Part shown: in pieces, positions 44,200-63,172 of the stretch
How the letters are laid out: every line of letters begins with the position of its first letter
Position numbering within the stretch: position 1 is the stretch's first letter
NCBI GenBank assembly: GCA_004556965.1
Contig: SFFE01000008.1
Span: 10,077 to 74,076 of the forward strand
Length of the DNA: 64,000 nt
From: Clostridiales bacterium
GTDB lineage: Bacteria > Bacillota > Clostridia > Oscillospirales > Oscillospiraceae
Direction: 5' to 3'
Translations under genes and position numbers: made by a program
Notes under the pieces: generated by a model
Seen by the model: only the letters and a program-made list of their open reading frames with translations
Databases searched by the model: none
Told to the model about the DNA's origin: nothing

Positions 44200-44308
44200 C
44201 CTTTTAGCTCCTATGATATGATAAAAGGGCAGACTACTCCCTTGTGGTGAGGTGGGTTTTCTGTCTTGCCGTCCAGGTGTTGGTAGCGCCTGGGCGGCTT
44301 TTGTTTTT

Positions 44309-44325
44309 GTGTCCAAATTGGACAC
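44309..44325. repeat. 17-bp palindrome GTGTCCAAATTGGACAC, copy 1
   Basis: Perfect 8+1+8 palindrome, intergenic between int and the upstream gene. Confidence 0.95.
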
Positions 44326-44336
44326 GTGAAATTTCT

Positions 44337-44867
44337 TTAGACGTTCTTGTTTTTTCCGTAAAAAATTTTCCCAGCACGTAAGTTTTTGTGATAATAGCAC
44401 GACAACGCGATACCCTTATCTGGATTTACGCACCTTTTCGCGTCGCTGCACTGCTCATACCGGGAGCAGCACCCATATTCCGAAGGATATGATTCGATCT
44501 GCGCTCCGAGTATGGCCTGCAGCGAAGGTATGTATTGATCGATGTCGGGCGCGGAGCTGATAGGAATCCGTATGTAATCTTGATCGGATGGAATTATCTC
44601 TATCTTTGTATCATCCGGCAGCAGCCGAGCATAGTTTTTTGATACGGAAAAATAAGTTTTTGCGCCCTGCATCTTCAGCCTGAAAATCACAGATCGAGTT
44701 CTTCCGAGTGTCACGGAGCCGTAGTTTGATTTTGTATCCGCATAAGCTAGCTGATTCTCATCTACATAGTATTTACTAAGCGTTTCGAGCAGGGACGGCT
44801 CAACCCGCAGATATGCTATTTTCTCAGGTGTCAGAATTTCCATATCGTCAAACGTCATTTGCTCCAC
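44337..44867 (-). CDS. hypothetical protein with C-terminal Cys cluster (CC-x6-C-x6-C...C)
   Basis: 176 aa. Overlaps the 3' end of the exonuclease gene by 20 nt (coupled). Low-G+C segment. Confidence 0.55.
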   Translation of the reverse strand: MEQMTFDDMEILTPEKIAYLRVEPSLLETLSKYYVDENQLAYADTKSNYGSVTLGRTRSVIFRLKMQGAKTYFSVSKNYARLLPDDTKIEIIPSDQDYIRIPISSAPDIDQYIPSLQAILGAQIESYPSEYGCCSRYEQCSDAKRCVNPDKGIALSCYYHKNLRAGKIFYGKNKNV

Positions 44868-45771
44868 AATAGACGCCTCCTTTTGCGAGCGCTAGAAACT
44901 GTTCTTCATCCAAAAATTCGATATTTGCGGTTCCGCTGGCGTTGAGTTGATATGCTTTTTCCTCTTTCGTGCTCAGTCCGTCGTCTCCGACGAGCGCTAT
45001 GTCCTGCATGCCGACCACGAGGTAATCCGTCTTCCGCGAAACGGACGACTTCACGATCGCACCGGAATCAACGGCAATCTGCATTGCTGTCCGCCGCTCA
45101 ATTGATAACTCTCCAGTAAAAACAATATTCTTTCCATACAGAGGGCTAGATGTATCAATGCATTCGACGGATTGATGTATATCAGATGGACGCGCGTATT
45201 TTTTCGTTCTCCTCCGTACCGGATTGAATAATGGGGATTCTTCCGGAATATCGCACACAAAGTACTTCGCGTGGATTGGTATGCCTTTTCCGATGAAGTA
45301 CAACATCAAATTTGCGCAGGATACCGCATCTGACTCAGAATTATGATGGCACTCGCAGCAAATTCCATACTCTGCGCAGAGATCGGTCAACTTCAAATTT
45401 GCGATATGTAATTGCTCGCGCGCGATTGTCATTGTGCAGTAGCATTCTGTTTCGGGCATATCAATCCCATACCGAATGCAAGCTTTTCGCAAAACATTGA
45501 CGTCAAACGCTGCGTTGTGCGCAACAATCGGGAAATTCCAAAAATACGGGATTACCTCTTCCCATACATCCGGGAATGTGGGTGCATCTTGTACTTCTTC
45601 CGGCGTAATGCCGTGAATTTTGATTGCGTGAGGGCTGAACTCGGCTTCCGGATTGATTAAATAATTTAGTTCCCTTACTATTTTCCCATCTTTTACAACT
45701 GCCAAACCGAGTGAGCATGGGGCGCTATTGTCGTAATCTGCAGTTTCAAAATCAAATGCGACAAAGTCCAT
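44848..45771 (-). CDS. DnaQ/DEDDh-type 3'-5' exonuclease fused to a BRCT domain
   Basis: FDFETAD (Exo I), HNAAFD (Exo II), HNSESD (Exo III). C-terminal FTGEL...DYLVVG BRCT block. Confidence 0.8.
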   Translation of the reverse strand: MDFVAFDFETADYDNSAPCSLGLAVVKDGKIVRELNYLINPEAEFSPHAIKIHGITPEEVQDAPTFPDVWEEVIPYFWNFPIVAHNAAFDVNVLRKACIRYGIDMPETECYCTMTIAREQLHIANLKLTDLCAEYGICCECHHNSESDAVSCANLMLYFIGKGIPIHAKYFVCDIPEESPLFNPVRRRTKKYARPSDIHQSVECIDTSSPLYGKNIVFTGELSIERRTAMQIAVDSGAIVKSSVSRKTDYLVVGMQDIALVGDDGLSTKEEKAYQLNASGTANIEFLDEEQFLALAKGGVYCGANDV

Positions 45772-45787
45772 TTGAGGCTCTCTCCTC

Positions 45788-45804
45788 TCTGGTTTACGTG
45801 TCCA
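45788..45804. repeat. 17-bp palindrome GTGTCCAAATTGGACAC, copy 2
   Basis: Lies between the repressor stop (45817) and the exonuclease start (45771). Confidence 0.95.
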
Positions 45805-45816
45805 AATTGGACACAA

Positions 45817-46419
45817 TCACAGCTTTGCCCGCAGCTCGACCACGCGGCCGAGGATCGTCACGGGCAGGCTCTCAATTTCTTCATTGCTATAGTACATTGG
45901 CTCGTAGGCCGGATTGCTGGGTATCAGCGTCACGCCCTGCGGGCTTTTTTTGATGCGCTTGACAGTGGCGTCGTTTCCGTTGACGAGCGCGACCGCAATG
46001 TCGCCGCTGTCCACGTCCGGCTGGCGGCGGACGATCACCACGTCGCCGTCAGAAATTTTCGGCTCCATGCTCTGGCCTTTAATCTGCAGCCCGAAGTATT
46101 CGCCATTTCCGATTTCATCGACGCTGATATCTTCCCAGTCGATTACTTCCTCGATCGCGTCGATCGGGATGCCGGCAGCCACGCGGCCGAGGACGGGGAT
46201 ACGTATGTATTCACCATGCTTTTTTCTCCCCGAAACTCCGCCAAGCAAGTAATCGAGCGTGACATCAAAATAGTCTGCAATCCGCCGATATGTATTGATG
46301 TCGGCTTCATATTTTCCGGTTTCGTATCCCGATAGTGCGGCTTGGCTAACATTTATGTCCTTCGCTAAATCAGCTTGCTTGATACCTTTTTGATTTCGCA
46401 ATTCCCTAATTTTATTCAT
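45817..46419 (-). CDS. LexA/CI-like phage repressor (XRE HTH plus S24 peptidase)
   Basis: HTH block QADLAKDINVSQAALSGYE. Cleavage and catalytic blocks AAG, GQSMEP and VKRI. Confidence 0.88.
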   Translation of the reverse strand: MNKIRELRNQKGIKQADLAKDINVSQAALSGYETGKYEADINTYRRIADYFDVTLDYLLGGVSGRKKHGEYIRIPVLGRVAAGIPIDAIEEVIDWEDISVDEIGNGEYFGLQIKGQSMEPKISDGDVVIVRRQPDVDSGDIAVALVNGNDATVKRIKKSPQGVTLIPSNPAYEPMYYSNEEIESLPVTILGRVVELRAKL

Positions 46420-46422
46420 TTT

Positions 46423-46552
46423 ATCAACTCCGTTGATAACAATCTAATTGATTTTTTATATGATGTAAATATAAAATCAAGAAACTCGAAAAAATATATT
46501 GACATATCAAGAAACTTGATTTAATATAGAATGCGTAATCAATATTATTGAT
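46423..46552. promoter_or_regulatory. lysogeny switch region with four ATCAA-N5-TTGAT-type operators and a TTGACA-17-TAATAT rightward promoter
   Basis: Operators are ATCAACTCCGTTGAT (46423-37), ATCAAGAAACTCGA (46476-89), ATCAAGAAACTTGAT (46506-20) and ATCAATATTATTGAT (46538-52). -35 at 46499-504, -10 at 46522-527. Confidence 0.75.
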
Positions 46553-46762
46553 ATGCCAGGAGGTGATATCTTGGAGGGCATTAAAATCTATCGGCAGAAG
46601 AACGGTATAACACAGGCGGCGCTCGCAAATATCCTCGGCGTTAAGCAGACGACTGTCGCAATGTGGGAAACAAACGGGAGCTACCCGCGAGCTGAAATGT
46701 TACCAGCTATCGCCAAGACGCTTGGCTGCTCCATTGACGCGCTCTATGACGCGCCCGCCTGA
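46553..46762 (+). CDS. Cro-like XRE-family HTH protein
   Basis: ITQAALANILGVKQTTVAMWE HTH. Divergent from the repressor. Confidence 0.75.
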   Translation: MPGGDILEGIKIYRQKNGITQAALANILGVKQTTVAMWETNGSYPRAEMLPAIAKTLGCSIDALYDAPA

Positions 46763-46818
46763 TGATTCCATTTTACCACGCAGTGTAGATAATATTTTTG
46801 GCGCAGGAGGTGAAAATT

Positions 46819-46986
46819 GTGCAAATTCGCATCGAATGCACATCTACCGAAGTTGCCGACCTCGTATCGGGTCTCCAGCTCGTCGTGCGGCAACACGAAT
46901 TATTCAGCAACGAAATCCCAGGCGTTGCAGACAGAGTCTGCGAGATTATTCAGGATCGAAAGCAATCGGGCCAGATTTGGAAATAA
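46819..46986 (+). CDS. small hypothetical phage protein
   Basis: GGAGGTG RBS 7 nt before the GTG at 46819. Confidence 0.4.
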   Translation: MQIRIECTSTEVADLVSGLQLVVRQHELFSNEIPGVADRVCEIIQDRKQSGQIWK

Positions 46987-47022
46987 TCTCAGCCGATATT
47001 TTTGACGCAGGAGGTGATATGC

Positions 47023-47220
47023 ATGGATGATCGCGCCAAAAAAGCAATTGCGGCGATGAAGCGAGGCGCAGACCCCTTGTGCGCGCTGGCTCGCGAAATT
47101 CGGGAAACGAACGATCCGAACGAGGCTTGGGCGCTGTGTGCAACCGGAAAATGGATTGTGCTGCTTTCGGCCTCGATCGGATCAACGGTTCGCTATTCGC
47201 TTGGAAGAGTCAGAGACTAG
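47023..47220 (+). CDS. small hypothetical phage protein
   Basis: GGAGGTG RBS 6 nt before the ATG at 47023. Confidence 0.45.
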   Translation: MDDRAKKAIAAMKRGADPLCALAREIRETNDPNEAWALCATGKWIVLLSASIGSTVRYSLGRVRD

Positions 47221-47411
47221 CTCCAAAGCGGCGGCTCTTGCTCATCGTTGACTATGCCCATGCAATACCGGAAATAGGCGGTATGGGATCCATCTTCCTC
47301 AACTCTCGTGCCGCCTACTATTCCAAGGCAAGTCCAACCGTCCGATAGCATTTGATCGGCCTTCTGGTCGCCTTCAACTTCGCAGACCATATTAAATTCC
47401 GAAAAATCCAT
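47217..47411 (-). CDS. small acidic hypothetical protein, opposite strand to the early operon
   Basis: AAAGGGGGTG RBS 6 nt before the ATG. 64 aa. Confidence 0.5.
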   Translation of the reverse strand: MDFSEFNMVCEVEGDQKADQMLSDGWTCLGIVGGTRVEEDGSHTAYFRYCMGIVNDEQEPPLWS

Positions 47412-47474
47412 TTTTTCACCCCCTTTCGAACGGATTTTACCATGAAAGGGAGGAAATTACAAGGAGGTGACGCC

Positions 47475-47666
47475 ATGAAAGGAATGGCAACCTGCCGCAA
47501 GGCGGCGGGCATGACGCAGGTCGCGTTTGCGGCAGCTATCGGCGTGAGCCAGTCGAGCGTTGCGGCGTGGGAGGCGGGAGTCTCTTACCCCTCCGCGGAC
47601 AAGCTGCCCGTGATCGCCAAGACGCTGGGCTGCTCCATCGACGCGCTGTACGGCGCGCCCGCCTGA
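47475..47666 (+). CDS. XRE-family HTH protein (paralogue of 46553..46762)
   Basis: AAGGAGGTG RBS. MTQVAFAAAIGVSQSSVAAWE. The 3' end and flank are duplicated from the cro-like gene. Confidence 0.7.
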   Translation: MKGMATCRKAAGMTQVAFAAAIGVSQSSVAAWEAGVSYPSADKLPVIAKTLGCSIDALYGAPA

Positions 47667-47701
47667 TGATTCCATTTTACCACGCAAGGAGGTACTGCAC
47701 C

Positions 47702-48154
47702 ATGCAGGATAATTACCGCAACATCTACAAAAGGGCAAGGGAGACTTCCGGGATGACGCAGGAGCGCTTCGCCGAGGCGCTTGGCCTGAGCGTCGAGAGC
47801 GTCCGCCTGTACGAGACAGGGCGCGGTTTGCCGTCCGACGATGTCGTCGTGGACATGATCGCGATCTCCGGCCTGCAGGTGCTCGGCTATCAGCACTTGC
47901 TCAATAAGTCGCGCGTCGCGGCGGAGATTCTGCCGGAGGTGGCGGAGTGCTCGCTGCCGCAGGCGGTGATCCAGCTCATCTGCCGAATCCGCGACTTCGG
48001 CGACCGCCACCGCACCGACGACTTGATGAACATTGCCGCCGACGGCCGCATCGACGACCACGAGCGCGCGCTCTTCGACGAGATCGTCGCCGAGCTGGAT
48101 AGCGTCGTGCAGGCAGCGATGCAGCTCAAATATGCACAAGGAGGACAATTATGA
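47702..48154 (+). CDS. XRE HTH-domain protein with extended C-terminal domain
   Basis: AAGGAGG RBS. MTQERFAEALGLSVESVRLYE. Confidence 0.65.
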   Translation: MQDNYRNIYKRARETSGMTQERFAEALGLSVESVRLYETGRGLPSDDVVVDMIAISGLQVLGYQHLLNKSRVAAEILPEVAECSLPQAVIQLICRIRDFGDRHRTDDLMNIAADGRIDDHERALFDEIVAELDSVVQAAMQLKYAQGGQL

Positions 48155-48369
48155 CGATTGAGGATATCAAGGCAATGGACAAGCCGTATCTGATTCCAAA
48201 GGACGTCGCGCCGCTGCTTGGCTGCGACCCGTACACGATTAATGTCTGCGCAAAGCAATGCCCGGAACGGTTGGGCTTCCCGGTGATCCTGATGGGCAGC
48301 CGCGTCCGCATCCCGCGCGAGGGATTTATCCGCTTTTGGATGGGCGAGACGGTGGTGAAGGCTGTATGA
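48151..48369 (+). CDS. small DNA-binding (excisionase-type HTH) protein
   Basis: 72 aa with the pattern YLIPKDVAPLLG....I......R.PREGFIRFW. ATGA overlap with the previous gene. Confidence 0.5.
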   Translation: MTIEDIKAMDKPYLIPKDVAPLLGCDPYTINVCAKQCPERLGFPVILMGSRVRIPREGFIRFWMGETVVKAV

Positions 48370-48485
48370 GCTTCGCGGGGCATAAAAAAAGAGCCGCACC
48401 CGCGGCAACGGGTACGACTCAACGCCAAGTAATCAGCATCTTTATTTTATCCCATATTCGGGATTTTTGCAAGGGGTGATTTTGA

Positions 48486-49265
48486 ATGGCAACCATTTTC
48501 CGCGTAGAAAAGAGCGCAAATTACACCGTGATGTCCAACTATCACCTCGACGATGCGCGGCTGAGCTTGAAAGCGATCGGGCTGCTATCCAAGATTCTGC
48601 GTATGCCGGACGGCTGGGACTATTCCATAGAGGGGCTCTCGCGCATTTGCCGCGAGGGCAAGGCCGCGATCCGGAGCGCGATTGAGGAGCTGGAGGAGGC
48701 GGGCTACATCGTCCGCCGCCAGACGCACGGAGAGGGCGGCCAGTTTGCTGGGAATGAGTACATCGTGTATGAGCAGCCGCATTTCGATGCTGAAAAATCA
48801 CCGTCGTGCGAAAATCAAACGACGGTAGAAGAATCACCGTCGTGCGGTTTTCCGTCGACGGAAAATCCGTCGTCGGGAAACCCGTCGTCGGAAAACCGCA
48901 CGCAAATAAATACTATCTTAGCAAATACTATACCCCCTAAAGCCCCCCAAGGGGGGCGGCGGCGTCGTGAGCCGAAAAAAGCGCCGGACTGGGAGCCGGA
49001 GCGTTTCGCCGCATTCTGGGCGTACTACCCCAGAGGAGAGTCCAAGCAGGCAGCAATTGCAGCGTGGGACAAGCTGCGCCCGTCCAGTGAGCTGATCGAC
49101 GAGATGGCGCGGGCACTCAAACGGCAAACGCAAACGGAAGAATGGCAGCGCGGCGTCGGCATCCCGTATGCGTCGACCTGGCTCAATCAGCGCCGGTGGG
49201 AAGATGAGCAGCGGGCACCGAATCCGCCCGCGGACGACGAAGGGAGCTTGCCGTTATGGACATGA
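48486..49265 (+). CDS. phage replication initiator/replisome organizer (winged-helix N-domain)
   Basis: N-terminal FRVEK..NYT...N..L.D..LS.KA.GLL block. Immediately upstream of, and overlapping, dnaB. Confidence 0.65.
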   Translation: MATIFRVEKSANYTVMSNYHLDDARLSLKAIGLLSKILRMPDGWDYSIEGLSRICREGKAAIRSAIEELEEAGYIVRRQTHGEGGQFAGNEYIVYEQPHFDAEKSPSCENQTTVEESPSCGFPSTENPSSGNPSSENRTQINTILANTIPPKAPQGGRRRREPKKAPDWEPERFAAFWAYYPRGESKQAAIAAWDKLRPSSELIDEMARALKRQTQTEEWQRGVGIPYASTWLNQRRWEDEQRAPNPPADDEGSLPLWT

Positions 49266-50545: not shown

Positions 50546-50808
50546 TGAAAGTAGGAGATAAGATCGGCCATTTGCGGCCTACATTTGGCGCGATCCACGA
50601 CGCCAAAGAGGATCGCCGCACATTCCCGGCAACGGTAGTGTACATTCACCCGGAAGGAAGATTCATCTCGGTCGAATTTGAGCTTCCGCGCGGCCGAAAG
50701 TGCCGCGAGAGCTTTTATTTTGAAAATCGGCAGGGCGCGGCAACGCCCAGAAAGGAAAATGAGCATGAAAGTAATCAGCATCGTAAATCTAAAAGGCGGC
50801 GTCGGTAA
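50545..50808 (+). CDS. hypothetical phage protein
   Basis: AAGGAG RBS. The ATG overlaps the dnaB stop. The 3' end overlaps parA. Confidence 0.4.
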   Translation: MKVGDKIGHLRPTFGAIHDAKEDRRTFPATVVYIHPEGRFISVEFELPRGRKCRESFYFENRQGAATPRKENEHESNQHRKSKRRRR

Positions 50809-51538
50809 AACGGTCACCGCCGTGAACATGGCGGCGATCCTCGCGACCGAGCACAACAAGCGCGTGCTCGTGATCGACGCCGACCCGCAAGCCAATGCGA
50901 CCCGATTTTTCGGCGCGCAGGATGCGCCCGCGACGCTGTGCGACCTGTTTGCCGGGCGCACCACATGCTATGACGACATCGTATGGCAGACGCAGATCGC
51001 GGGTGTGGACATCGCCCCGGCGACGATCGACCTGCTCGCGTTTGATGTCGCTGCCGCCACGGAAGAGCAGGGGATCGTCCGCATGCTCTCCGATCTCTGC
51101 ACCGCAGCCGAGGAGGATAGCGCCTATGACTATGCTATCATCGACTGCCCGCCGGGCTTTACCGCGGTCAGCATTTCCGGCATCGCGGCGAGCGACGACG
51201 TAATCATACCGGCCAAGGTGGACGCCTTTGCGATGTCCGGCATCGACGAGCTGCGGGCGCAGATCGAGGGCGTGCAGCGTGTCGGGCAGGGCATCCGGAT
51301 CGCGGGCGTGCTTGTGACGATGTGGCACAACGCGCCGGTCGTGACGCAGGGCGAGGCGTATCTCAGGAGCCAGTCTGTGCCGGTGTTCGAGACGACGATC
51401 CGCCGCACGGATAAGGTGGACGAGTCCACATTTGCCCGCCAGCCGATCAGTGACTATTCGCGCTGGTGCTCAGCCGCGCGGGACTACCGAGATTTTGTGG
51501 ATGAGTATCTCGCCAAGGAGGTGCGCATCGATGGGTAA
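50759..51538 (+). CDS. parA: ParA/Soj-family partition ATPase
   Basis: Deviant Walker A NLKGGVGKT. DCPP Walker B region. Confidence 0.88.
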   Translation: MSMKVISIVNLKGGVGKTVTAVNMAAILATEHNKRVLVIDADPQANATRFFGAQDAPATLCDLFAGRTTCYDDIVWQTQIAGVDIAPATIDLLAFDVAAATEEQGIVRMLSDLCTAAEEDSAYDYAIIDCPPGFTAVSISGIAASDDVIIPAKVDAFAMSGIDELRAQIEGVQRVGQGIRIAGVLVTMWHNAPVVTQGEAYLRSQSVPVFETTIRRTDKVDESTFARQPISDYSRWCSAARDYRDFVDEYLAKEVRIDG

Positions 51539-52997
51539 GGCGTTCAATCTGGCCGATTTCATGCCCGACGCAAATGTGTCCAAATTGGACACGCCAACAC
51601 GCGAGATCAAGATGATCCCGACGCGCAGCATCTTCCCGAACGATAAAAATTTTTATGATACGTCCAATGTGAGCGATTTGATCGATAGCATCCTGCTGCA
51701 TGGGCTGCTTGATCCGCTGACCGTTCGGCCTGCTGGCGACGGAGAGGGCTACATTATCATCTCCGGACACCGGCGGCACAAGGCCATGATGACGATTCTG
51801 GACGACGCGCTTGCAGAAGATCTCACACCGTTTGAGACGGTGCCGTGCTTCATTTCCGAGCCGCGCGACGAGCTGATGGAGGAGCTGATGCTCATCCAAG
51901 CCAACAGCGCGACGCGCGTGCTGACGTCGGCAGAGCTGGCAAAGCAGGCCGAGAAGATAGAGGAACTGCTTTACCGGCTCAAGGAGCAGGGCTATGAGTT
52001 TCCGGGCCGCATGCGTGATCACGTCGCCAAGGCGTGCAACGTGGCGGCGTCCCGGCTTGGGCGGCTGAAAGTGATCCGCGAGAAGCTGATCCCGGAACTC
52101 TACGAGCGGTTTGGGGGCGGTCTGATCCCGGAGAATGCGGCTTACGATGCGGCGCGGATGCCGGAGCGCGACCAGCAAATTCTCGCGCAGCGGCACAAAA
52201 AGGAAATCACGACGTGGGAAGTGAACAACGTAAAGTCGTGGCTTGAGAATATCAACGCCCTCACGGAGTGCAATTATTCCGATGGCGCTTGCGACCAATA
52301 CGAGGTGCGGAGCGGGATGTATCTCGAAAGAGGATACATCCCCTGCGCTGGGAAATGCTGCATGGATTGCTATAGTCTCGTCACCTGCGATAAGGCCTGC
52401 GCCAAGTGCAAGGAACGCCGAAAAGAGCTGATCGACGAACGCGAGCAGCGCGAGGAGAAGGAGCGAGCCGAACGCGAAGCGCGGAATGCCGAAGCTAAGG
52501 CAAGAGCGGATGCACGCGAGCGGGAAGTTTCGAGGCTCTGGCAGCGTCTCGGCGCGGCGCGTGAGGCAGCACATATTGCCGACGAGACATTTTACAATGA
52601 CGTGCTGGAGTGGTACCTGGACGACGAAGAAATTGAGATTATGCTTGTCCGAGAGAGGGGAGGAATCCCGGAGGATGCTTGGTTCGACGAGCCGTTTTCG
52701 GATAGTGCCGAAGATCTCCGAACGGCGGCCGCCGCGCTGCATTGCACGACGGACTACCTCCTCGGCGTATCAGACGAGCCGCAGCCGTCCAGTGCTGGCC
52801 GCTGGCGCTGCGTGGCGGATGGCGAGCTGCCGGACGAGGGGCAGGCCGTCATTATACTTTTACGATTCTCGCAAAATTCCGCTTGGTCGAGCAACACGTC
52901 CGTGTACCACAACGGCAAATTCCGTTTCACGCAGGATTTGGATATGGAACTTCGCGGCGTGCAGTATTGGATGCCGTCGCCGGAGCTTCCGGAGTAA
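51531..52997 (+). CDS. parB: ParB/Srx-domain protein with long C-terminal extension (Cys cluster, E/R coiled coil, HTH-like DYLLG segment, DUF551-like tail)
   Basis: LLDPLTVRP...ISGHRRHKA ParB box. 8-nt overlap with parA. Confidence 0.8.
   Translation: MGKAFNLADFMPDANVSKLDTPTREIKMIPTRSIFPNDKNFYDTSNVSDLIDSILLHGLLDPLTVRPAGDGEGYIIISGHRRHKAMMTILDDALAEDLTPFETVPCFISEPRDELMEELMLIQANSATRVLTSAELAKQAEKIEELLYRLKEQGYEFPGRMRDHVAKACNVAASRLGRLKVIREKLIPELYERFGGGLIPENAAYDAARMPERDQQILAQRHKKEITTWEVNNVKSWLENINALTECNYSDGACDQYEVRSGMYLERGYIPCAGKCCMDCYSLVTCDKACAKCKERRKELIDEREQREEKERAEREARNAEAKARADAREREVSRLWQRLGAAREAAHIADETFYNDVLEWYLDDEEIEIMLVRERGGIPEDAWFDEPFSDSAEDLRTAAAALHCTTDYLLGVSDEPQPSSAGRWRCVADGELPDEGQAVIILLRFSQNSAWSSNTSVYHNGKFRFTQDLDMELRGVQYWMPSPELPE
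51576..51592. repeat. 17-bp palindrome GTGTCCAAATTGGACAC, copy 3 (inside the parB 5' end)
   Basis: Encodes NVSKLDT of ParB. Confidence 0.95.
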
Positions 52998-53007
52998 AGG
53001 AGTAACT

Positions 53008-54090
53008 ATGGAAATAATTGAAATCACGTCCCAGAAGCAGCTTGACGAGCTGCCGCTTGACTACAACGGAAGAATCTGTATCAAATTCGGCACGCCGGAT
53101 GATCGCGCGATTATTCGGCATCGTTATATATATCCCGTCGAGGCGTTGGAGAACAGCAGCGTCGAGGCGTTGGAGAACAGCAGCGTCGTGGCGCGGGGCA
53201 ACAGCAGCGTCGTGGCGCGGGGCAACAGCAGCGTCGAGGCGTGGGAGAACAGCAGCGTCGTGGCGCTGGATAACAGCAGCGTCGTGGCGCGGGGCAACAG
53301 CAGCGTCGTGGCGTTGGAGAACAGCAGCGTCGAGGCGCGGGGCAACAGCAGCGTCGAGGCGCGGGGCAACAGCAGCGTCGAGGCGCACGGCAACAGTAGC
53401 GTCGTGGCGCGGGGCAACAGCAGCGTCGTGGCGCACGGCAACAGTAGCGTCGTGGCGCGGGGCAACAGCAGCGTCGTGGCGCGGGGCAACAGCAGCGTCG
53501 TGGCGCGGGGCAACAGCAGCGTCGTGGCGCACGGCAACAGCAGCGTCGTGGCGTGGGATAACAGCAGCGTCGTGGCGCGGGGCAACAGCAGCGTCGTGGC
53601 GAGGGGGAATACACGGGTGGTTGCTGCATCTAATGCGGCAGCAATTCAACAATCGGGCAACGCTCTCATCGTACATATGCCGCGCACAATTGCTGAATAT
53701 CTCGAATTTTACGAAATCGAGAACGATGGTGAAACCGCGAAGCTGTACAAAGCCGTGCACAAGATCGACGGCATTTATCGCTCCGACTACACGCCCAGAT
53801 GTACATATGCGCCCGGTGAAACAACGGAGGCAGATGCGCTCGACAAAGACCCGGACGAGACATGCGGTCACGGCATCCACATGGCGCATCTTGATTGGTG
53901 TCTTGATTATGGACGCAATTGGAGCGATCTTGCAATCATTGAGGTCGAAACCGAGACCGACGGCATTATCGTACCCCGGAGCGGAAACGGAAAAGTCCGT
54001 GCCGAGCGGTGCAAAATGATTCGAGAAGTTCCGCTTGAAGAGTGCGGCGTATATGGAAAGATTCTCGCAAAACGGAGGAGCAACGCATGA
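53008..54090 (+). CDS. phage protein built of about 20 tandem 8-residue (V[VE]A[RHWL][GED]NSS) repeats plus a C-terminal globular domain
   Basis: AAAGGAG RBS. The 24-nt DNA period at 53137-53616 is in frame with the flanking non-repetitive N- and C-terminal domains. Confidence 0.75.
   Translation: MEIIEITSQKQLDELPLDYNGRICIKFGTPDDRAIIRHRYIYPVEALENSSVEALENSSVVARGNSSVVARGNSSVEAWENSSVVALDNSSVVARGNSSVVALENSSVEARGNSSVEARGNSSVEAHGNSSVVARGNSSVVAHGNSSVVARGNSSVVARGNSSVVARGNSSVVAHGNSSVVAWDNSSVVARGNSSVVARGNTRVVAASNAAAIQQSGNALIVHMPRTIAEYLEFYEIENDGETAKLYKAVHKIDGIYRSDYTPRCTYAPGETTEADALDKDPDETCGHGIHMAHLDWCLDYGRNWSDLAIIEVETETDGIIVPRSGNGKVRAERCKMIREVPLEECGVYGKILAKRRSNA
53137..53616 (+). repeat. about 20 near-perfect 24-nt tandem repeats (GTCGTGGCGCGGGGCAACAGCAGC consensus)
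   Basis: Direct reading. Variation is confined mainly to codons 2, 4 and 5 of each octad. Confidence 0.95.
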
Positions 54091-54243
54091 GCAAGCTGAA
54101 AAAATCGCTGGACAAGCTCGCATCAATGGCCGTTCTAACACTCGCAGCCACTTGCTCAGCAATCGGCGCGATCTGGTTGCTCGGCGCGGCGTGCAGTATT
54201 GGCTGCCGTCGCCGGAGCTGCCAGAGTAAAGGAGGACGATGAT

Positions 54244-55090: not shown

Positions 55091-55850
<760 letters not shown>

Positions 55851-55861
55851 GGGGCGACTGA

Positions 55862-56608: not shown

Positions 56609-56667
56609 CTTTTTATTTATTTTTCTGACTTGAAAATAATATTATTATAGCGACAAAGGAGCTAAAA

Positions 56668-56877
56668 GTGTTGCAAACACAAGAAAAATCGAGTACAATA
56701 AAAGTGCAAGGAGGCCGAGCGATTTGCCCGTCGTGCCATACTAGGACGCAGATCGAGATTCGGCAAGATACAGTCCTGATCAACTATCCGCTGTACTGCA
56801 AAAGATGCAAGCGAACAACGCTTGTGAGATATGGAGAGCCTGAGCCTGAGAGCCTGAGCCAATCGACAATGCATTGA
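56668..56877 (+). CDS. Cys-rich KTR-type zinc-ribbon protein
   Basis: CPSCH...T.I...T.L.N.PLYC.RCK pattern. AAAGGAG RBS with a GTG start. Confidence 0.6.
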   Translation: MLQTQEKSSTIKVQGGRAICPSCHTRTQIEIRQDTVLINYPLYCKRCKRTTLVRYGEPEPESLSQSTMH

Positions 56878-56938
56878 TGTGCATGTTGGTCGGCTCAGGC
56901 TTTTTTGTTTGCTCCGGCCGCCCCGGAGGTGATAGCCC

Positions 56939-57217
56939 GTGACGGCGACCGGGAAAACATTTTCTTACGATTGCGCCCGCTGGAAGCATAAGCGTGCCGC
57001 AATTTTGCGCAGGGACGGCTACATGTGCCGGAACTGCCGACGATACGGACGGCTGACCGAAGCGACGGAAGTGCATCACATCAAGCACGTGGACGAGTAT
57101 CCGGAGCTGGCTTATGTGGATGATAATCTCATCAGCCTGTGCCACGCCTGCCACAATGCGCAGCACCCGGAGAAGGCTGCTGCTTTGAAGCACCCGCGCG
57201 CATATTGCCGCTATTAA
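56939..57217 (+). CDS. HNH endonuclease (terminase-associated type)
   Basis: CRNC...HHI.H......N L..LC..CH..H motif. Immediately upstream of terS. Confidence 0.85.
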   Translation: MTATGKTFSYDCARWKHKRAAILRRDGYMCRNCRRYGRLTEATEVHHIKHVDEYPELAYVDDNLISLCHACHNAQHPEKAAALKHPRAYCRY

Positions 57218-57378
57218 TCCCCCCCCTCTCGTCGACCGCATTGGTCGGCGCTCGTCTTGTGGCGGTGTTAACTCTCTCCAAGCGCGCGGCGAAAAATCGG
57301 GGAGGGGGATCGCACGCGCGACAAAATCAACCCGCGCCCGCGCGCCACGGGATTTTACTCGCGCGGGAACATTAGAGC
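57217..57378 (+). other. structured non-coding block in cos-type position (HNH-terS gap), homologous to island 40129-40290
   Basis: C8...G4AG5 long-range complement. Nested CGCGCGA/TCGCGCG and CCCG/CGGG stems. Confidence 0.75.
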
Positions 57379-57459
57379 AGGCAGCGGACGGCATATTCAC
57401 AAAAACCATCATTTTTTGTGAATAGCGGCCGCGATCCGCGCCGGAAATCTGCAAAAATC

Positions 57460-57476
57460 GTGTCCAATTTGGACAC
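57460..57476. repeat. 17-bp palindrome GTGTCCAATTTGGACAC, copy 4
   Basis: Intergenic, directly upstream of the terS RBS. Confidence 0.95.
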
Positions 57477-57527
57477 GGGAAGGAGGCGCGCTCCATCAGC
57501 AAGCGAGAAGACGACATCCGCGCAAAC

Positions 57528-57881
57528 ATGCGGATTGCCGGAACATACAACGAGGCCTTCGAGCCTGTGATCCGGATGCTGGCCAAAGTCCAGACGGAGC
57601 TGGCGCGCGCCGAAAAGGACTGGCGCGATCCGGAGCTTGGCAACAAGGAGTACGTATCCGAATACACCAACAAGGCCGGCGCGACGAACTTTGTGAAGAA
57701 TCCATACTTTGCGGTGGTGGAAGATCTCCGCCAGGACGTGCTGTCGATCTCTTCGCAGCTCGGCCTGACCCCACAGGGGCAGCGCCGGGTAATGGGCAGC
57801 AATGCCAAGATCAAGCCGCAGGGCAAGTCCAAGTTTGAGACGGCGCTCGCGGCGGCTGCAAAGGCGGCTGGGAAGACGTGA
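57528..57881 (+). CDS. terS: terminase small subunit (P27-family-like)
   Basis: Position and size fit terS. Stop overlaps the terL start. The frame is open upstream to 57426 and a strong GGAAGGAGG at 57478 suggests an earlier non-ATG start. Confidence 0.65.
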
Positions 57882-59638
57882 CGGCACCCATTATCCGCAT
57901 CGGCTCCGGGAAAAATGCGCAGGCGGTCGCGGACTATGTGCAGGGCTGCATCACCGGAAGAATTCCGGCGTGCCCGGAAATCGCGCAGGCGTGCCAGCGA
58001 TTTGCCAACGATCTCAGTGATCCGCGCTGGGACTTCCGCCCACAGGACGCGGAGTACGCCATTGCCCTCATCGAGACGATGCTCTGCCACCAGCAGGGCG
58101 AGCGGCTCGACGCGACGCCGCTGCGCGGCCAGCCGTTCCTGCTGCTGCCGTATCACAAATTCATCGTATACAATCTCCTGGGCTTTTACGTCTCCGGCAC
58201 GCAGGAGCGCCGATTCAAAGAGGCGTTCATCTTCGTACCCCGTAAAAATATTAAGACGACGTTCGCCGCCGCGCTCGCCTGGGCGCTGGCGCTGATCGAG
58301 CGGAAGTCAGGCGCAAAAGTTTACATCGTCGGCGCTGCGCTCCGCCAGGCATTGGAGGCTTTCTCTTTCCTTTCCTACAATGTCCGGCGGCTGGGGCTGA
58401 GCGAGGACGACGACCCAGAGGAGGGGCTGCGGCTCCTGGACAATAACCAGGAGCGCAGCATTTCCGGGGAGATCGGCGACGGCTCAATCTACATCGGCGC
58501 GCTCGCCTCCAACCCGGACGCGCAGGACGCGCTTAACGCCAACATCATCATCGCCGATGAGCTTCATGCCTATAAGTCGCCGAAACAGTACAACGTGCTG
58601 AAGGAGGCAACCAAGGCATACACCAACAAGCTCGTCATCGGCATCACCACCGCTGGCGACCGCGAGAACAGCTTCTGCGGCCACCGCCTGAAATACTGCC
58701 GCAAAATCCTGAACGGCACCGTCACGAGCGCCGACGCCGACGCGCTTTTTATCTACATCGCCTGCGCGCCAGTGGATGAGCACGGCGACGTGGACTACAC
58801 GAATCCGCTGGTGCACCAGCAGGCCAACCCGGCCTATGGCGAGTCCATCCGGCCAAACGACATCATGAACGATGCGCTGCAGGCGCAGAACGACCCGCAG
58901 CAGCGCAAGGACTTTTTTGCGAAATCCCTGAACGTCTACACCACAGCGCTCAAGGCATATTTCAACATCGAGGAATTCCGCGCCAGCGACAGCAAGTACA
59001 ACTGGACGCTTAAGGAGCTGGCCAAGCTGCCCATCAAGTGGTACGGCGGCGCGGACCTCTCCAAGCTGCACGACCTCACCGCGGCTGCATTGTTCGGCAC
59101 CTACCAGGGCGTGGACATCATCGTCCCGCATTGCTGGTTCCCGCGCACCGCAGCGGCGATCAAGGCGGACGAGGATAACATCCCGCTGTTCGGCTGGAAA
59201 GACGACGGGTGGCTCGATATGTGCAACGACAAGTCGATCAACCAGGCTGAGGTCGTCGGCTGGTTCGTGGCCATGCGGAAGATGGGATTTAACATCGTGG
59301 AAGTCGGCCACGACCGGAAATTCTGCCGCGAGTATTTCGGCGGCATGAAAAAGGCGGGCTTTCGCATCATCGATCAGCCGCAGTATTTTTACAAGAAATC
59401 CGAGGGATTCCGGCACATCGAGGCCAGTGCCAAAAATGGAAAGCTGTACTACATGCACGCCGAGCCCTATGAATACTGCGTGGAAAACGTCCGCGCCATC
59501 GAGAAGACGGACGATATGGTGCAGTACGAGAAAGCAGAACCGACTCTGCGCATCGACGTGTTCGACGCCTCCGTTTTTGCGTGCATTCGCGCGCTGGAGA
59601 ACATGGACAAGGGCGGCGCAGAGAAGAGCTGGTACTAA
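57878..59638 (+). CDS. terL: terminase large subunit
   Basis: 586 aa. Walker-type ATPase N-domain and RNaseH-like nuclease C-domain organisation. Syntenic position. Confidence 0.85.
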
Positions 59639-59648
59639 GGAGGAAATT

Positions 59649-60845
59649 ATGAGCAAAAAGAAACGCCGGAGCCGGGACCGCCCGACCAACACCCGCAGCA
59701 CGACGAACGACGCGCTCGGCGCGTGGCTGATCGGTGCTGCGGAATCGCTGGAGGTGAGCGGCTATACCCGAATGAGCGATTGCCCGGAAGTGTCCGCTGG
59801 CGTCGATGCGATCGCCGGACTCGTTGGGAGCATGACCATCCACCTGATGCAAAACGGCGACGGCGGCGACGTCCGCGTCCGCGATGGGCTGGCCGCGAAA
59901 GTGGACATCAGCCCGTACTCCCTCGGCACTCGAAAATCCTTTATCGAGTGGATCGTCCGGACGATGATGACATCCGGTAACGGAAATGCCTTTGTGCTGC
60001 CGGTCTTCGACGGTGGATTTCTGGACGATCTTGTACCAATGCCGGGCGCGTCGGCATATCCGAGCGGTGCCGGGTACGAGGTACAGTGGCGCGGCCGGAC
60101 GTTTGCGCCGGATGAGGTGCTGCACTTTGCGCTGCGCCCGTCCTTGACGGAGCCGTGGCGCGGCACCGGATACCGCGTGCAGCTCCGAGACGTGACCAAG
60201 AATCTTCGACAGGCGAACGCAACGAAGAACGCATTTATGTCTCAGAAATGGAAGCCGTCCGTCATCATCCGCGTGCAGGGCGTGGCGGATGAATTTTCCA
60301 CGAAGGAGGGGCGCGACCGCCTGCTGAACAGCTACATCGACACCGACGAAGCTGGAAAGCCGTGGGTAGTGCCAGCCGACCTGCTGGACGTCCAGCAGGT
60401 GAAACCGCTGACGCTGAACGATCTGGCCATCAACAATGCCGTGACACTGGATAAGCGCACGGTCGCCAGCATCCTCCACGTTCCGGCATTCCTGCTCGGC
60501 GTCGGCGATTTCAACGCCGCGGAGTACAACAACTTTATCCGCACGACTGTGATGCAGTTCGCGCAGATCATCCAGCAGGAGCTGACGAAGAAACTGCTGA
60601 TCGCGCCGGATCGCTATTTCAAGCTCAACGCCAGATCGCTTTATGCCTACGATCTGAAGGAGCTGGAGGAGATCGGCTCTGACATGTATGCCAAGGGCAT
60701 GATGGAGGGCAACGAGGTGCGAGACTGGCTCGGCCTCTCGCCAAAGGCCGGCCTCAATCAGCTCGTGATGCTGGAAAACTATATCCCCGCCGACAAGATC
60801 GGCGACCAGAAAAAACTACTGCAGGGAGGTGATAGCAATGCCTGA
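59649..60845 (+). CDS. phage portal protein (HK97 family)
   Basis: AGGAGG RBS. About 398 aa. Lies between terL and the prohead protease. Confidence 0.8.
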   Translation: MSKKKRRSRDRPTNTRSTTNDALGAWLIGAAESLEVSGYTRMSDCPEVSAGVDAIAGLVGSMTIHLMQNGDGGDVRVRDGLAAKVDISPYSLGTRKSFIEWIVRTMMTSGNGNAFVLPVFDGGFLDDLVPMPGASAYPSGAGYEVQWRGRTFAPDEVLHFALRPSLTEPWRGTGYRVQLRDVTKNLRQANATKNAFMSQKWKPSVIIRVQGVADEFSTKEGRDRLLNSYIDTDEAGKPWVVPADLLDVQQVKPLTLNDLAINNAVTLDKRTVASILHVPAFLLGVGDFNAAEYNNFIRTTVMQFAQIIQQELTKKLLIAPDRYFKLNARSLYAYDLKELEEIGSDMYAKGMMEGNEVRDWLGLSPKAGLNQLVMLENYIPADKIGDQKKLLQGGDSNA

Positions 60846-61425
60846 TAGGATTACCCGCCAGCTCCGGAGCATCCCGCAGAATTTCCAGACGCGCGCGGAC
60901 GGCGACGACCTGTACATTGAGGGATATTTCGCAGTTTTCAACAGCCCCTACGTCCTCTGGGAGGGCGCGGAGGAGATTGTGAAGCAAGGAGCGTTTGCAG
61001 ACACGCTCTCCGGCGACATCCGCTGCCTGATCGACCACGACACCCGGCTTGTGCTTGGGCGCACCACCGTCGGCACGCTCACGCTGCGCGAGGATGAACG
61101 CGGCCTGTGGGGGCAGGTGAAGATCAATCGGGACGACGTGGACGCCATGAATCTCTATGCCCGCGTGCAGCGCGGCGACGTCGATCAGTGCTCGTTCGGC
61201 TTCAATATCGACAAGGAGGCGTTCGTAGACCTCGGCGGCGGAAAGTGCCGCTGGGAGATCGAGAAAGTCACGCTCTTTGAGGTATCCATCGTCACGTTCC
61301 CGGCCTATGAGGAAACTGCGGTAAAGGCGCGCCACGCAGACCTCGCCGAGATCCAGCGCCGGAAGCTGGAGACATGGCGCGCAACCATGAAAAACAAGAT
61401 TGGAGGAAAGAACAATGGCACTTAA
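60838..61425 (+). CDS. HK97-family prohead protease
   Basis: GYFAVFNS...DHD...LGRT...FGF blocks. GGAGGTG RBS. Confidence 0.82.
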   Translation: MPDRITRQLRSIPQNFQTRADGDDLYIEGYFAVFNSPYVLWEGAEEIVKQGAFADTLSGDIRCLIDHDTRLVLGRTTVGTLTLREDERGLWGQVKINRDDVDAMNLYARVQRGDVDQCSFGFNIDKEAFVDLGGGKCRWEIEKVTLFEVSIVTFPAYEETAVKARHADLAEIQRRKLETWRATMKNKIGGKNNGT

Positions 61426-62824
61426 AGTCCTGCGGCTGCGCAAGCGCCTGAATGATCGCACGGCGCAGCTCGAACAGCTCAGAGCTGACGCCGCCGCGCT
61501 GGATGAGCGCGAGGCACAGCTTGAGGCGGACATCGAGTCCGCCGAAACTGTCGAAGATCAGGCCGCGGTCGACGCGGCGATCGACGAATTCAACACGGAC
61601 CGCGACGCAAACGATGCCGCGATCGCAGCGGCGGAGGAAGATATCCGGTCGCTGACCGAGGAGCTCGCCACGGCGGAGGCCGCCGCAAACGAGGCAAGAA
61701 ACAGTAATCCGGCGCAGACCGGACAGGAAAGGAGAAACAATACCATGCCCCAGAATCCCGAAACCCGTACCCGCTTTTTCGGCATGACCGTCCAGCAGCG
61801 CGACGCCTTCATGGCGCGCACGGACATCGCCGATTTCCTCACCCGCGCCCGCGAACTGCTCGGCCAGAACCGCAGCGTCTCCGGCGCAGAGCTTGGCATC
61901 CCGGATGTGATGCTCGATGTCCTTCGCGACAATATGGCCCGCTACTCCAAGCTCATCACCAAAGTGCGTCTGCGCACGGTAAAGGGCAAGGCGCGCCAGA
62001 ACATCATCGGCGAGGTGCCGGAAGGCGTCTGGACGGAGGCGATCGGCGCGCTCAACGAGCTGGAAATGTCCGTGACCCAGATCGAGGTCGACGGCTACAA
62101 AGTCGGCGGCTATATCGCAATCGCCAACAGCTACCTGGAGGACGATGACAACATCGGCCTGGCATCCGAGATCATGGATCAGCTCGGCCAGGCGATCGGC
62201 TATGCGGTGGACAAGGCCATCGTATTTGGCGATGGCAGCAAAAAGCCGGTCGGCATTGCGACACGCCTTGCCGCTGCGGCGCAGCCGGGATGGTGGGGCA
62301 CGCATCAGGGCACATTCAGCAATCTCTCCGCGACGAATGTGCAGACGCTGGATCTTGCCGCAAAGACTGGTGAGGAATTCTTCGCCGCTCTGATCGGTGC
62401 GCTCTCCGTGGCCAGCCCGAAGTATTCGTCCGGAACGCCGACATGGATCATGTCGCGCAAGACGCACATGGATATCGTCGCAAAGGCGCTGACCTTCACC
62501 GCGGCCGGCCCGCTCGTCGCCGGCATGCAGAACACCATGCCCGTGATCGGCGGCGAGATCATCGAGCTGGACTTTGTCGGCGACTACACGATCATCGGCG
62601 GCTACCTCGATCTGTATCTGCTGGCGGAGCGCGCCGGCGCGGCGATCAGCAGCTCGGAGCACGTCCGCTTCACGGACGATCAGACCGTGTTCAAGGGCAC
62701 GGCGCGCTATGACGGCAAGCCCATCCGCGGCGAGGCGTTTGTGGCCGTGCGCTACGACAACACCGCGCCGACCACCAGCGCAGAATTTGCGACTGACTCG
62801 GCGAATGCGGGCTCTGGAAGCTGA
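61415..62824 (+). CDS. HK97-fold major capsid protein with N-terminal coiled-coil delta domain
   Basis: Follows the protease. About 120-aa coiled-coil scaffold region followed by the capsid domain. Confidence 0.82.
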   Translation: MALKVLRLRKRLNDRTAQLEQLRADAAALDEREAQLEADIESAETVEDQAAVDAAIDEFNTDRDANDAAIAAAEEDIRSLTEELATAEAAANEARNSNPAQTGQERRNNTMPQNPETRTRFFGMTVQQRDAFMARTDIADFLTRARELLGQNRSVSGAELGIPDVMLDVLRDNMARYSKLITKVRLRTVKGKARQNIIGEVPEGVWTEAIGALNELEMSVTQIEVDGYKVGGYIAIANSYLEDDDNIGLASEIMDQLGQAIGYAVDKAIVFGDGSKKPVGIATRLAAAAQPGWWGTHQGTFSNLSATNVQTLDLAAKTGEEFFAALIGALSVASPKYSSGTPTWIMSRKTHMDIVAKALTFTAAGPLVAGMQNTMPVIGGEIIELDFVGDYTIIGGYLDLYLLAERAGAAISSSEHVRFTDDQTVFKGTARYDGKPIRGEAFVAVRYDNTAPTTSAEFATDSANAGSGS

Positions 62825-62857
62825 TAATCTTGCCGCGAATCTGGATGAGGAGGCTGC

Positions 62858-63172
62858 ATGATGCTCGAATCATTTGATTATATGCTTTTCGCGATGCTCA
62901 AAGCGAATCTTTCGATTACGACGAAGTCCAAGGACGAGTATCTCGGATTTCTGCTCAATTCCGCCAAGGAGCAGATCAAGCGAGAGGGAATCGTGCTTGG
63001 TGAGACGCTGGAAGATGCGAATCTCATCGTCATGTACGCGGCTTACCTCTTCCGGAAGCGCGCGGATGATATCGGAGCGATGCCCGTAATGCTGCGGTAC
63101 GCCCTGAACAATCGCCTTTTTGCGCAGAAGTGCGCGGTGTCCAAATTTGACACGGAGAGCGCCAATGTTTGA
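62858..63172 (+). CDS. head-tail connector (gp6-like) protein
   Basis: 104 aa in the post-capsid position. Typical YLF.KR....G.P..L...LN pattern. Confidence 0.65.
   Translation: MMLESFDYMLFAMLKANLSITTKSKDEYLGFLLNSAKEQIKREGIVLGETLEDANLIVMYAAYLFRKRADDIGAMPVMLRYALNNRLFAQKCAVSKFDTESANV
63137..63153. repeat. degenerate palindrome copy 5, GTGTCCAAATTTGACAC
   Basis: One half-site changed (GTGTCAAA). Encodes VSKFDT at the connector gene 3' end. Confidence 0.8.

Follow-up and report, generated by a model that had tools for sequence, protein, structure and literature searches.

Which protein reads a short palindrome that recurs every few kilobases along an integrated phage, and what could such an array do there? 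The question is raised by a 64,000-nt stretch of DNA from a Clostridiales bacterium of the Oscillospiraceae (GenBank assembly GCA_004556965.1, contig SFFE01000008.1, positions 10,077 to 74,076 of the forward strand; below, the window), in which Pfam and PHROG scans place a temperate siphovirus-type prophage next to a tRNA cluster. An earlier reading of the same letters (below, the original prediction) had proposed that this prophage carries five dispersed copies of a 17-bp palindrome and that these are candidate parS sites for the phage ParAB pair. The analysis described here leads us to regard the palindromes as, quite probably, the cognate parS-type binding and loading sites of the prophage ParB, within a ParABS-like module that has an overlapping upstream parA. 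As in the original prediction, the adjacent ParB is our candidate for the binder, because a site lies at the parA/parB junction, plasmids that share only ParAB with the phage carry the same arms, the arm sequence covaries with the ParB recognition helix and the CI/Cro region of the phage has a different motif.

Copies of the palindrome in the window

The 17-mer GTGTCCAAWTTGGACAC occurs exactly four times in the window (at 44309, 45798, 51576 and 57460), and a fifth copy, GTGTCCAAATTTGACAC, has one mismatch, its right arm reading TGACAC. In dinucleotide-preserving shuffles, exact matches number 0.00 and those with three or fewer mismatches 0.11, so that the predicted number of copies is found where about none is expected by chance. 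The predicted gene contexts are also found: sites 1, 2 and 4 are intergenic (between integrase and cargo, cargo and repressor, and HNH and terS, respectively), site 3 lies in parB and site 5 in a connector gene (Table 1). Four of the five predicted positions are right, and the second copy, given as 45788-45804, had slipped by 10 nt. Successive sites are separated by 1489, 5778, 5884 and 5677 bp; the last two values are those first reported, and the second corrects an earlier 5788 bp.

The original prediction had suggested looking for further copies at about 5.8-kb spacing. Near-identical copies of the prophage on other contigs do have one, with the next exact site 6142 bp past site 5, inside a Prophage_tail gene. 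The four consecutive intervals of 5778, 5884, 5677 and 6142 bp have a coefficient of variation of 0.03 (post hoc P ~5e-5). We considered regular ~5.8-kb spacing as a rule for the family and rejected it: other clades are irregular (0.7-8.7 kb), and the related prophage Cormatin, introduced below, has a 15-kb tail region free of sites.

It had also been claimed that the palindrome is missing from the 42 kb outside the prophage. This is true of exact copies; there is, however, a degenerate hybrid copy, GTGCCCAATTCGGACAC, at 38778 in the neighboring ~7-kb integrative element, 270 nt downstream of the REP_ORF2-G2P gene of that element. This copy probably comes from a related element and does not belong to the prophage. 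The operators of the immunity region form a separate motif, as predicted: ATCAA-N5-TTGAT (N5, five free bases) has three exact copies (46423, 46506 and 46538), all in the gap between CI and Cro, and a GTGTCC site was looked for in that gap without result.

Two further structures lie close to the sites. A strong intrinsic terminator on the + strand (44268-44298, a 14-bp stem followed by TTTTGTTTTT) abuts site 1, antisense to the integrase gene; over the left half of the terminator region (44238-44298), 43 nt are repeated with 93% identity at 40958-41000 in the 7-kb element. Between HNH and terS, 37 bp upstream of site 4, there is an 11-bp AT-rich inverted repeat, ATTCACAAAAA-N7-TTTTTGTGAAT (57395-57423). 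In HNH-dependent phages, cos sites usually lie between HNH and terS.

The site in related phages

An alignment of 12 diverse ParB homologues was used to fetch a ParB-centered set of 80 viral loci (1.19 Mb). These loci contain 110 sites of the form GTGTCC-N5-GGACAC and none of the control patterns, which comprised the everted arrangement, spacings of N3, N4, N6 and N7, direct repeats and arm-shuffled palindromes. The arms and the N5 spacing are conserved, in elements ranging from 24% to >60% G+C, and the spacer itself is free (AAATT, AAATC, AACTT, GAGTT and others). Where the exact site is lacking (35 of the 80 loci), symmetric variants are mostly found instead, the commonest being GTGCCC-N5-GGGCAC. 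Others in these 35 loci are GTGTTC..GAACAC, GTGTCG..CGACAC and GTGTCC..TGACAC; the last is the arm type of site 5, which recurs in another ParB clade.

Protein and site occur together across the family. The exact 17-mer is present in at least 120 viral contig stretches, in many contexts that include the 5' end of parB-like genes. With 1-15 kb of each viral contig covered, ParB is present in 15 of the 43 motif loci of at least 10 kb, about the share expected, at one site per ~6 kb, were every such phage to encode ParB. Of 24 motif loci that contain ParB, 18 have a site either 15-54 nt inside parB or immediately ahead of it. Among the matches listed by a genome-wide scan for the motif (596 Gb), most are singletons from unrelated phyla that chance would account for (with 14 specified bases, some 2000 or more should turn up), and seven of the nine genomic loci with a ParB homologue have the site at the parB 5' end or just before it. 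A search of the phage collection for DNA nearly identical to the prophage found none.

Integrated relatives are found on chromosomal contigs of 140-385 kb, with ParB proteins that are 86% and 47% identical to that of the window. Their sites lie at the same boundaries (integrase/cargo, cargo/repressor, upstream of terS and after the connector), and the spacer sequence drifts. The positions of sites 1 and 2 are occupied in loci L123 (2482 and 2912) and L125 (4034 and 4830). The cargo slot between them varies, with an exonuclease-BRCT gene in the window, bPH_1 in L123 and a HIRAN protein in L125, and both flanking palindromes are kept. Site 5 has equivalents in L125 (20753) and in Cormatin, a prophage of F. 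plautii YL31 (15329, at the 3' end of the head-tail adaptor gene). The central site has moved in the 47% clade, where it occupies the 3' end of DnaB and not the 5' end of parB. Cormatin is an inducible, virion-producing chromosomal prophage (PMC10197239); in addition to the adaptor-gene site, it has one inside parB (64 nt in), one ahead of terS (by 20 nt) and a last one at another gene end.

A site near the start of the packaging module (from -1.5 kb to +0.15 kb of the terL start) is present in 40 of the 50 ParB loci that contain terL, including terL types unrelated to that of the window, an enrichment that is modest when counted by clade. In four annotated genomes with 18 sites, ten are intergenic, three are in the 5' end of parB and five are in the extreme 3' ends of genes. 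Such avoidance of gene interiors fits a regulatory reading; it could also arise because a 17-bp palindrome is hard to accommodate in coding sequence.

Tight clusters of GTGTCC-N5-GG[AG]CAC-type palindromes were seen elsewhere. A Microthrixaceae metagenome-assembled genome (MAG) has five copies 27 or 54 bp apart, that is, at multiples of 27 bp (L242, 3693-3844); a Selenomonas MAG has three in ~200 bp (L272, 5759-5962); and a Nostoc locus has two 84 bp apart (L288, 7425-7525). No ParB homologue of the window's family was found within the 8 kb examined near these three clusters.

The site within parB

Site 3 is written into codons 16-21 of parB, and in homologues these codons track the DNA. The peptide VS(K/N)LDT goes with GTGTCC..GGACAC, and VP(D/E)SGT with GTGCCC..GGGCAC, the changes from S to P and from D to G being the two symmetric base changes. 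Likewise, VSKSDT goes with ..TGACAC and VSESNT with ..GAACAC. In 66 parB genes, the Val codon is always GTG; the palindromic arms are perfect in 44 and have one mismatch in 20, so that 64 of 66 have at most one. To judge from these codons, selection in this part of parB is on the DNA rather than on the peptide.

Covariation of arm and recognition helix

We compared the first residue of the recognition helix with arm position 4 in 30 ParB clusters at 70% identity. Where this residue is Ala, the arms are T-only in all 12 clusters with sites of this type (237 T versus 3 C half-sites). Where it is Lys, the arms are C-only in four clusters, mixed in seven and T in one. In a neighbor-joining tree the Lys proteins form one large clade, and within it each replacement of the Lys (by Ala in L051 and L153, by Gln in L168 and by Arg in L169) goes along with C arms being lost completely or nearly so. 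Ala opposite T:A and Lys opposite C:G is a chemically sensible pairing. It also resembles a switch that Jalal et al. reportedly described in 2020, in which a few recognition residues, an Ala/Lys exchange among them, change specificity between ParB and Noc. The family consensus is GTG[T/C]CC-N5-GG[A/G]CAC, with helix residue 1 as the predicted specificity residue.

Plasmids with related ParAB

The C. perfringens conjugative plasmid pCP13 (NC_003042.1) has only ParA and ParB in common with the phage; its ParB is 33% identical over 218 aa. It contains GTGTCCCCGGGGGACAC or GTGTCCCCCGGGGACAC at 1701, 3516, 18492, 37854, 45174, 45228 and 49934, and one-mismatch copies at 11993 and 13510. All nine are intergenic (P ~2e-6). 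The copy at 1701 is in the parA/parB gap and that at 3516 follows PCP03, so that the two flank the parB-PCP03 region. Copies are also found beside parAB in P. sordellii pCS1-5 and C. difficile LIBA6289. These three plasmids have the same arms as the phage and none of the phage regulators near the sites. The 'putative parS' published for pCP13-type plasmids is a different region of 117 bp (PMC4459074), and a mini-replicon carrying parAB was unstable; ParAB of this plasmid family is treated in PMC4459074 and PMC8941779. As a separate observation, the gene upstream of cpb2 (beta2 toxin) has a pCP13 copy on either side.

ParBs of a Nostoc and a Lactococcus plasmid appeared among the weak homologues and were set aside, since they belong to different subfamilies. 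Each plasmid has its own repeated palindrome; they serve as negative controls. The Lactococcus plasmid pNCDO2118, with a more distant ParB that has a different helix-turn-helix (HTH), contains the 18-bp palindrome GGGGCTAAATTTAGCCCC three times (1980, 2208 and 4195) flanking parA/parB; GGGGCTAAATTTAGCCCC is likely the parS of that distant subfamily.

The ParA and ParB proteins

ParA matches AAA_31, CbiA and ParA in Pfam and PHROG 164 (ParA-like partition protein, E 7e-60), and it is paired with ParB in all syntenic relatives and in the plasmids. For ParB, phmmer finds Spo0J and Noc over residues 25-169. A Foldseek search with the AlphaFold model (predicted local distance difference test, pLDDT, 86) returns Noc, ParB and KorB at E 4e-8 to 1e-6, and the N-terminal 220 residues superpose on Noc, KorB-KorA and ParB-parS structures with target-normalised TM-scores of 0.68-0.72. 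The HTH in the model consists of a helix (161-169), a turn (170-172) and a recognition helix (173-185) that begins with Ala173. Residues 1-23, which include the peptide encoded by site 3, form a disordered linker (pLDDT <50), a region able to tolerate a constraint such as the embedded site.

Past the HTH there follow a Cys-rich region, a long coiled coil, an XRE-like remnant and a DUF551-like C-terminus; in the model, this part shows the Cys-rich region, a 56-residue helix (291-346) and a small beta domain. The segment between the DNA-binding domain and the coiled coil (~245-290) has six cysteines invariant over 54 homologues, among C247, C254, C276, C277, C280, C286 and C290, which suggests a metal or Fe-S site absent from canonical ParB. 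In the same 54 homologues, F5 is invariant, L7 nearly so and a basic residue frequent at positions 3-4; a ParA-contact peptide of a different kind is possible. PADLOC gave no defense match for ParB, and its match for ParA is marginal. KorB has a clamp-locking co-repressor, KorA or TrbA; neither family appeared when the tested candidate genes of the prophage were scanned with Pfam, although no search aimed at such a partner was made.

Alternative explanations

Could the sites be dispersed operators of another phage protein that silences the prophage? The CI-like repressor, Cro and the HTH_31 and HTH_36 proteins give four HTH candidates encoded near the sites, the transcription unit of repressor, cargo and integrase includes sites 1 and 2, and dispersed repressor sites are a known phage strategy. 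Mycobacteriophage stoperators and the conserved inverted repeats of phiC31 are short sites present at many places in a temperate phage genome; the immunity repressor binds them, and they match the immunity-promoter operator. In contrast, the immunity region of the window has another motif than the dispersed sites, the CI/Cro gap containing a cluster of ATCAA-N5-TTGAT, and the equivalent gap in L125 has TATCAA-N5 repeats. In addition, pCP13, pCS1-5 and LIBA6289 have the arms without these regulators, the arm variant follows the ParB recognition helix and a site is anchored at the parA/parB junction. On the strength of the different operator and of the plasmids we rejected this alternative, which we hold to be quite improbable. 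A functionless repeat, present by chance or hitch-hiking, has in its favor only the small number of copies in this single window; zero expected copies, the viral stretches with the exact 17-mer, positions that are kept while the spacers drift and the empty control patterns already refute it, and we give it practically no weight.

The palindromes could also act at the level of RNA or recombination, as hairpins like repetitive extragenic palindromes, as terminators or as boundary sequences for module exchange, with ParB a bystander. This would suit the intergenic pCP13 copies with their A- and T-tract flanks, the terminator score of site 4 on the antisense strand, the position of sites 2 and 5 just upstream of ribosome-binding sites, the cargo slot of varying content that is bracketed by sites 1 and 2, and the symmetric arm changes, which keep a hairpin. 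A generic hairpin, however, would not need the same arm sequence and N5 over such a range of G+C. The window copies have a stem of only 6 bp, an AT-rich loop and no sense-strand U-tract, and only site 4 scores as a terminator, so we rejected termination for them and kept it as a possibility for the pCP13 copies. None of the sites matches an Rfam family. Several copies are in coding sequence (parB, the connector and tail genes here; terS, tail-fiber and baseplate genes elsewhere), and the tie to a ParB helix residue and the parA/parB junction would be left unexplained. An explanation in these terms alone is, in our estimate, unlikely; an RNA effect could coexist with ParB binding.

Several points weigh against ParB as the reader of the sites. 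The element is integrated next to tRNA genes, where partition has no obvious job. An RNA hairpin would fit the symmetric arm changes just as well, and the pCP13 spacer is GC-rich (CCGGG or CCCGG) with flanks like those of bidirectional intrinsic terminators, so that an RNA-level role is possible for the pCP13 copies and may coexist there with ParB binding. The covariation is partly confounded by phylogeny and amounts to ~4-6 independent changes. In the protein, the ParA-activating peptide LG(R/K)GL was sought at the N-terminus and is absent, with MGKAFNLADF in its place; a canonical C-terminal dimerisation domain was not seen, there being no Pfam match past ParB_N except a weak one to DUF551; and CTPase box III is diverged (QANSATRVL versus ENxQRxxL), while the GxxRxxA arginines are kept. 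Finally, a full-text literature search for the phage and pCP13 versions of the 17-mer found no paper with the motif.

A possible mechanism

If the palindromes are ParB sites, a ParB dimer would read two GTGTCC half-sites whose centers are 11 bp apart and leave the 5-bp spacer free. Contact would be made through the N-terminal end of the recognition helix, where Ala173 would face the T of arm position 4. Once on the site, the dimer would, to judge from its homology with ParB, Noc, KorB and BisD, bind cytidine triphosphate (CTP), close to a clamp and slide off. Six or more sites, at most ~6 kb apart and at module boundaries (integrase/cargo, cargo/repressor, parA/parB, the start of the packaging operon, the end of the head genes and a tail gene), could in this way bring ParB onto most of the phage DNA. 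ParA would then use the resulting complex to position or segregate the phage DNA in its episomal state, be it after infection, after excision or in replication. Because the sites are at gene boundaries, the clamps may also act on transcription, as with KorB and BisD. Positioning and segregation of the episome and KorB/BisD-like long-range control of transcription are thus both plausible roles, and they are not exclusive. A 2025 survey of ParB-CTPases reports CTP binding in vitro for a phage protein of related architecture, a ParB-DUF3850 fusion whose gene neighbors parA in prophages (PMC12704722).

More speculatively, and with doubt, one might picture a large ParB family of Clostridia phages, prophages and plasmids that loads clamps from single 17-bp sites a few kilobases apart. 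The resulting private 'chromatin' might insulate or tune the cargo-defense slot and the par and late operons and hand episomes over to ParA. The site embedded in parB would co-evolve with the protein, an Ala/Lys switch would set GTGTCC versus GTGCCC, and in AT-rich plasmids the sites would double as terminators.

Comparison with known systems

The original prediction had called a dispersed centromere-like array in an integrated phage unusual. It is instead the rule within this ParB family, and it has analogues in KorB, N15 SopB and BisD. In RK2/RP4, as here, a ParB-family protein (KorB) is encoded beside a ParA (IncC), and a short palindrome (the OB operator) is dispersed over the whole element. 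KorB superposes on the window's ParB model with a target-normalised TM-score of 0.68. It is a CTP-dependent sliding clamp and a global regulator, with OB at and away from promoters (PMC11790492; structures 8qa8 and 8qa9). In the window, no sigma-70-like promoter is predicted at sites 1, 2 and 4. RK2 differs in its palindrome, in its host phylum and in being a plasmid, and the C-terminal half of the window's ParB is distinct (Cys-rich, coiled coil, DUF551-like).

The phage N15 (like PY54 and phiKO2) reportedly has, in the work of Ravin and Lane and of Grigoriev and Lobocka, a SopAB system with four centromere inverted repeats scattered over the phage genome, some of which are said to lie near late-gene promoters and to affect both stability and late gene expression. 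N15 is likewise a temperate phage with a ParB-type protein and several single, dispersed palindromic sites. In contrast to the window phage, N15 does not integrate; its prophage is a linear plasmid and has a protelomerase, and its SopB is a type Ia ParB with a SopA that has an N-terminal HTH, whereas the window's ParA is small. N15-type extrachromosomal lysogeny is not what we find: the tyrosine integrase lies by tRNA-Pro, relatives are within long chromosomal contigs and Cormatin is chromosomal. A use of N15 SopB is found in PMC7205306.

BisD of the integrated element ICEclc is a ParB-like CTP-binding clamp that loads at bisS, spreads over tens of kilobases, controls promoters of the element and has an extra domain absent from ParB (PMC12409273). 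It differs in having two sites versus six or more, in being an activator together with BisC, in belonging to a Pseudomonas conjugative element and in having no described role for an adjacent ParA. The chromosomal ParB-parS and Noc-NBS (Noc-binding site) pairs of Firmicutes (6sdk, 7nfu, 7ol9 and 6t1f) share the N-terminal CTPase fold, the HTH and a palindrome of 16-17 bp; their sites are unrelated in sequence (TGTTNCACGTGAAACA and ATTTCCCGGGAAAT), and their C-terminal domains and N-terminal ParA-binding motif differ. B. subtilis has a parS inside spo0J, at the 3' end of the gene, whereas the window's site is at the 5' end of parB. In the pCP13 family, ParAB is a homologous pair with the same arms in nine dispersed intergenic places, which differ from those of the phage in the GC-rich spacer and terminator-like flanks.

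The prophage and its neighborhood

The sites and genes of the prophage are collected in Table 1.

Table 1. Palindromes and prophage genes in the window, in order of position
Feature	Position	Strand	Description
Degenerate hybrid copy, GTGCCCAATTCGGACAC	38778-38794		Left arm C-type, right arm T-type; two or three mismatches by strand
Tyrosine integrase	within 42994-44400, start probably near 44199	-	Next to tRNA-Pro
Site 1, exact, GTGTCCAAATTGGACAC	44309-44325		Intergenic; follows the 176-aa cargo stop codon by 12 nt and lies ~110 nt upstream of where the integrase starts
176-aa cargo protein	in cargo slot 44337-45771		No family match
DEDDh exonuclease-BRCT cargo gene	44848-45771	-	PADLOC candidate defense family PDC-S48, E 1e-38
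Site 2, exact, GTGTCCAAATTGGACAC	45798-45814		Intergenic, 2 nt past the CI-like repressor stop, 26 nt before the exonuclease-BRCT ATG
CI-like repressor	45817-46419	-	HTH_3 + S24
Cro	46553-46762		
Two more HTH proteins			Past Cro
DnaB			Past the HTH proteins
parA	50759-51538	+	Small Walker-type ParA, ~257-259 aa, without N-terminal HTH extension; stop overlaps parB start
parB	51531-52997	+	488 aa, Pfam ParB_N (CTPase-type) fold, box II GHRRHKA
Site 3, exact, GTGTCCAAATTGGACAC	51576-51592		parB nt 46-62, codons 16-21 (V-S-K-L-D-T), 38 nt past the parA stop
DUF4406, N6/N4 methylase, REP_ORF2-G2P			In this order past parB
HNH	56939-57217		
Site 4, exact, GTGTCCAATTTGGACAC, center base flipped	57460-57476		Intergenic, HNH/terS; site center 408 nt before the terL start
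terS	57528-57881		
terL, portal, protease, capsid			In this order past terS
Connector-like gene	62858-63172		Past capsid
Site 5, GTGTCCAAATTTGACAC	63137-63153		Within the final 11 connector-like codons; the next ATG (63165) follows after 12 nt

Other features were seen around these genes. About 27 tandem copies of a 24-bp unit fill 53040-53705, inside an open reading frame (52486-54090) with only a weak DUF7666 match. The end of this long frame also has a duplicate of the parB 3' end, comprising the DUF551-like tail and the ribosome-binding site that follows; the two 50-nt repeats (family D11; 52953-53002 and 54185-54234) are 94% identical.

At either edge of the ~7-kb integrative element next to the prophage stands the 3' part of tRNA-Thr(ggt), as an exact direct repeat of 45 bp (35428-35472 and 42416-42460). 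The element encodes a tyrosine integrase (35901-37175, - strand), a REP_ORF2-G2P protein (37758-38504) that is 36% identical to that of the prophage and a Cys_rich_KTR protein (39158-39631), and it could be a satellite or a prophage remnant (35428-42460). G+C-rich repeat families of ~99 bp and ~89 bp (D2 to D8) fill much of the element and its edges (35630-35940, 39030-40090, 40399-40973 and 42120-42300). Further away, positions 1-8000 have a low G+C content (45-50%), an SbcC/AAA_23-type ATPase (818-3475) and an rve-family transposase (3960-5441), and may be another acquired island.

Significance

Proteins of the ParB-CTPase kind are common on prophages, and their DNA sites and roles are mostly undefined; in its treatment of parA-linked phage ParB fusions, the part of the 2025 survey cited above that deals with them does not discuss specific DNA sites (PMC12704722). 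Dispersed ParB-type sites as such are already known from RK2 KorB, N15 SopB and ICEclc BisD. What is new is a putative site, with a putative code for its specificity, in a large ParB family shared by Clostridia phages and plasmids, and with it a concrete candidate site and a conserved site map for one gut-phage and plasmid family. The pCP13-family toxin plasmids of C. perfringens had no defined centromere or operator, and the same palindrome is a candidate for it. A cultivable model is available in F. plautii YL31, which carries Cormatin and comes from the OMM12 consortium; Hi-C and virome data have been published (PMC10197239). If it is true that ParB coats integrated prophages, long-range control of the KorB and BisD type would extend to the temperate phages of a dominant gut clade.

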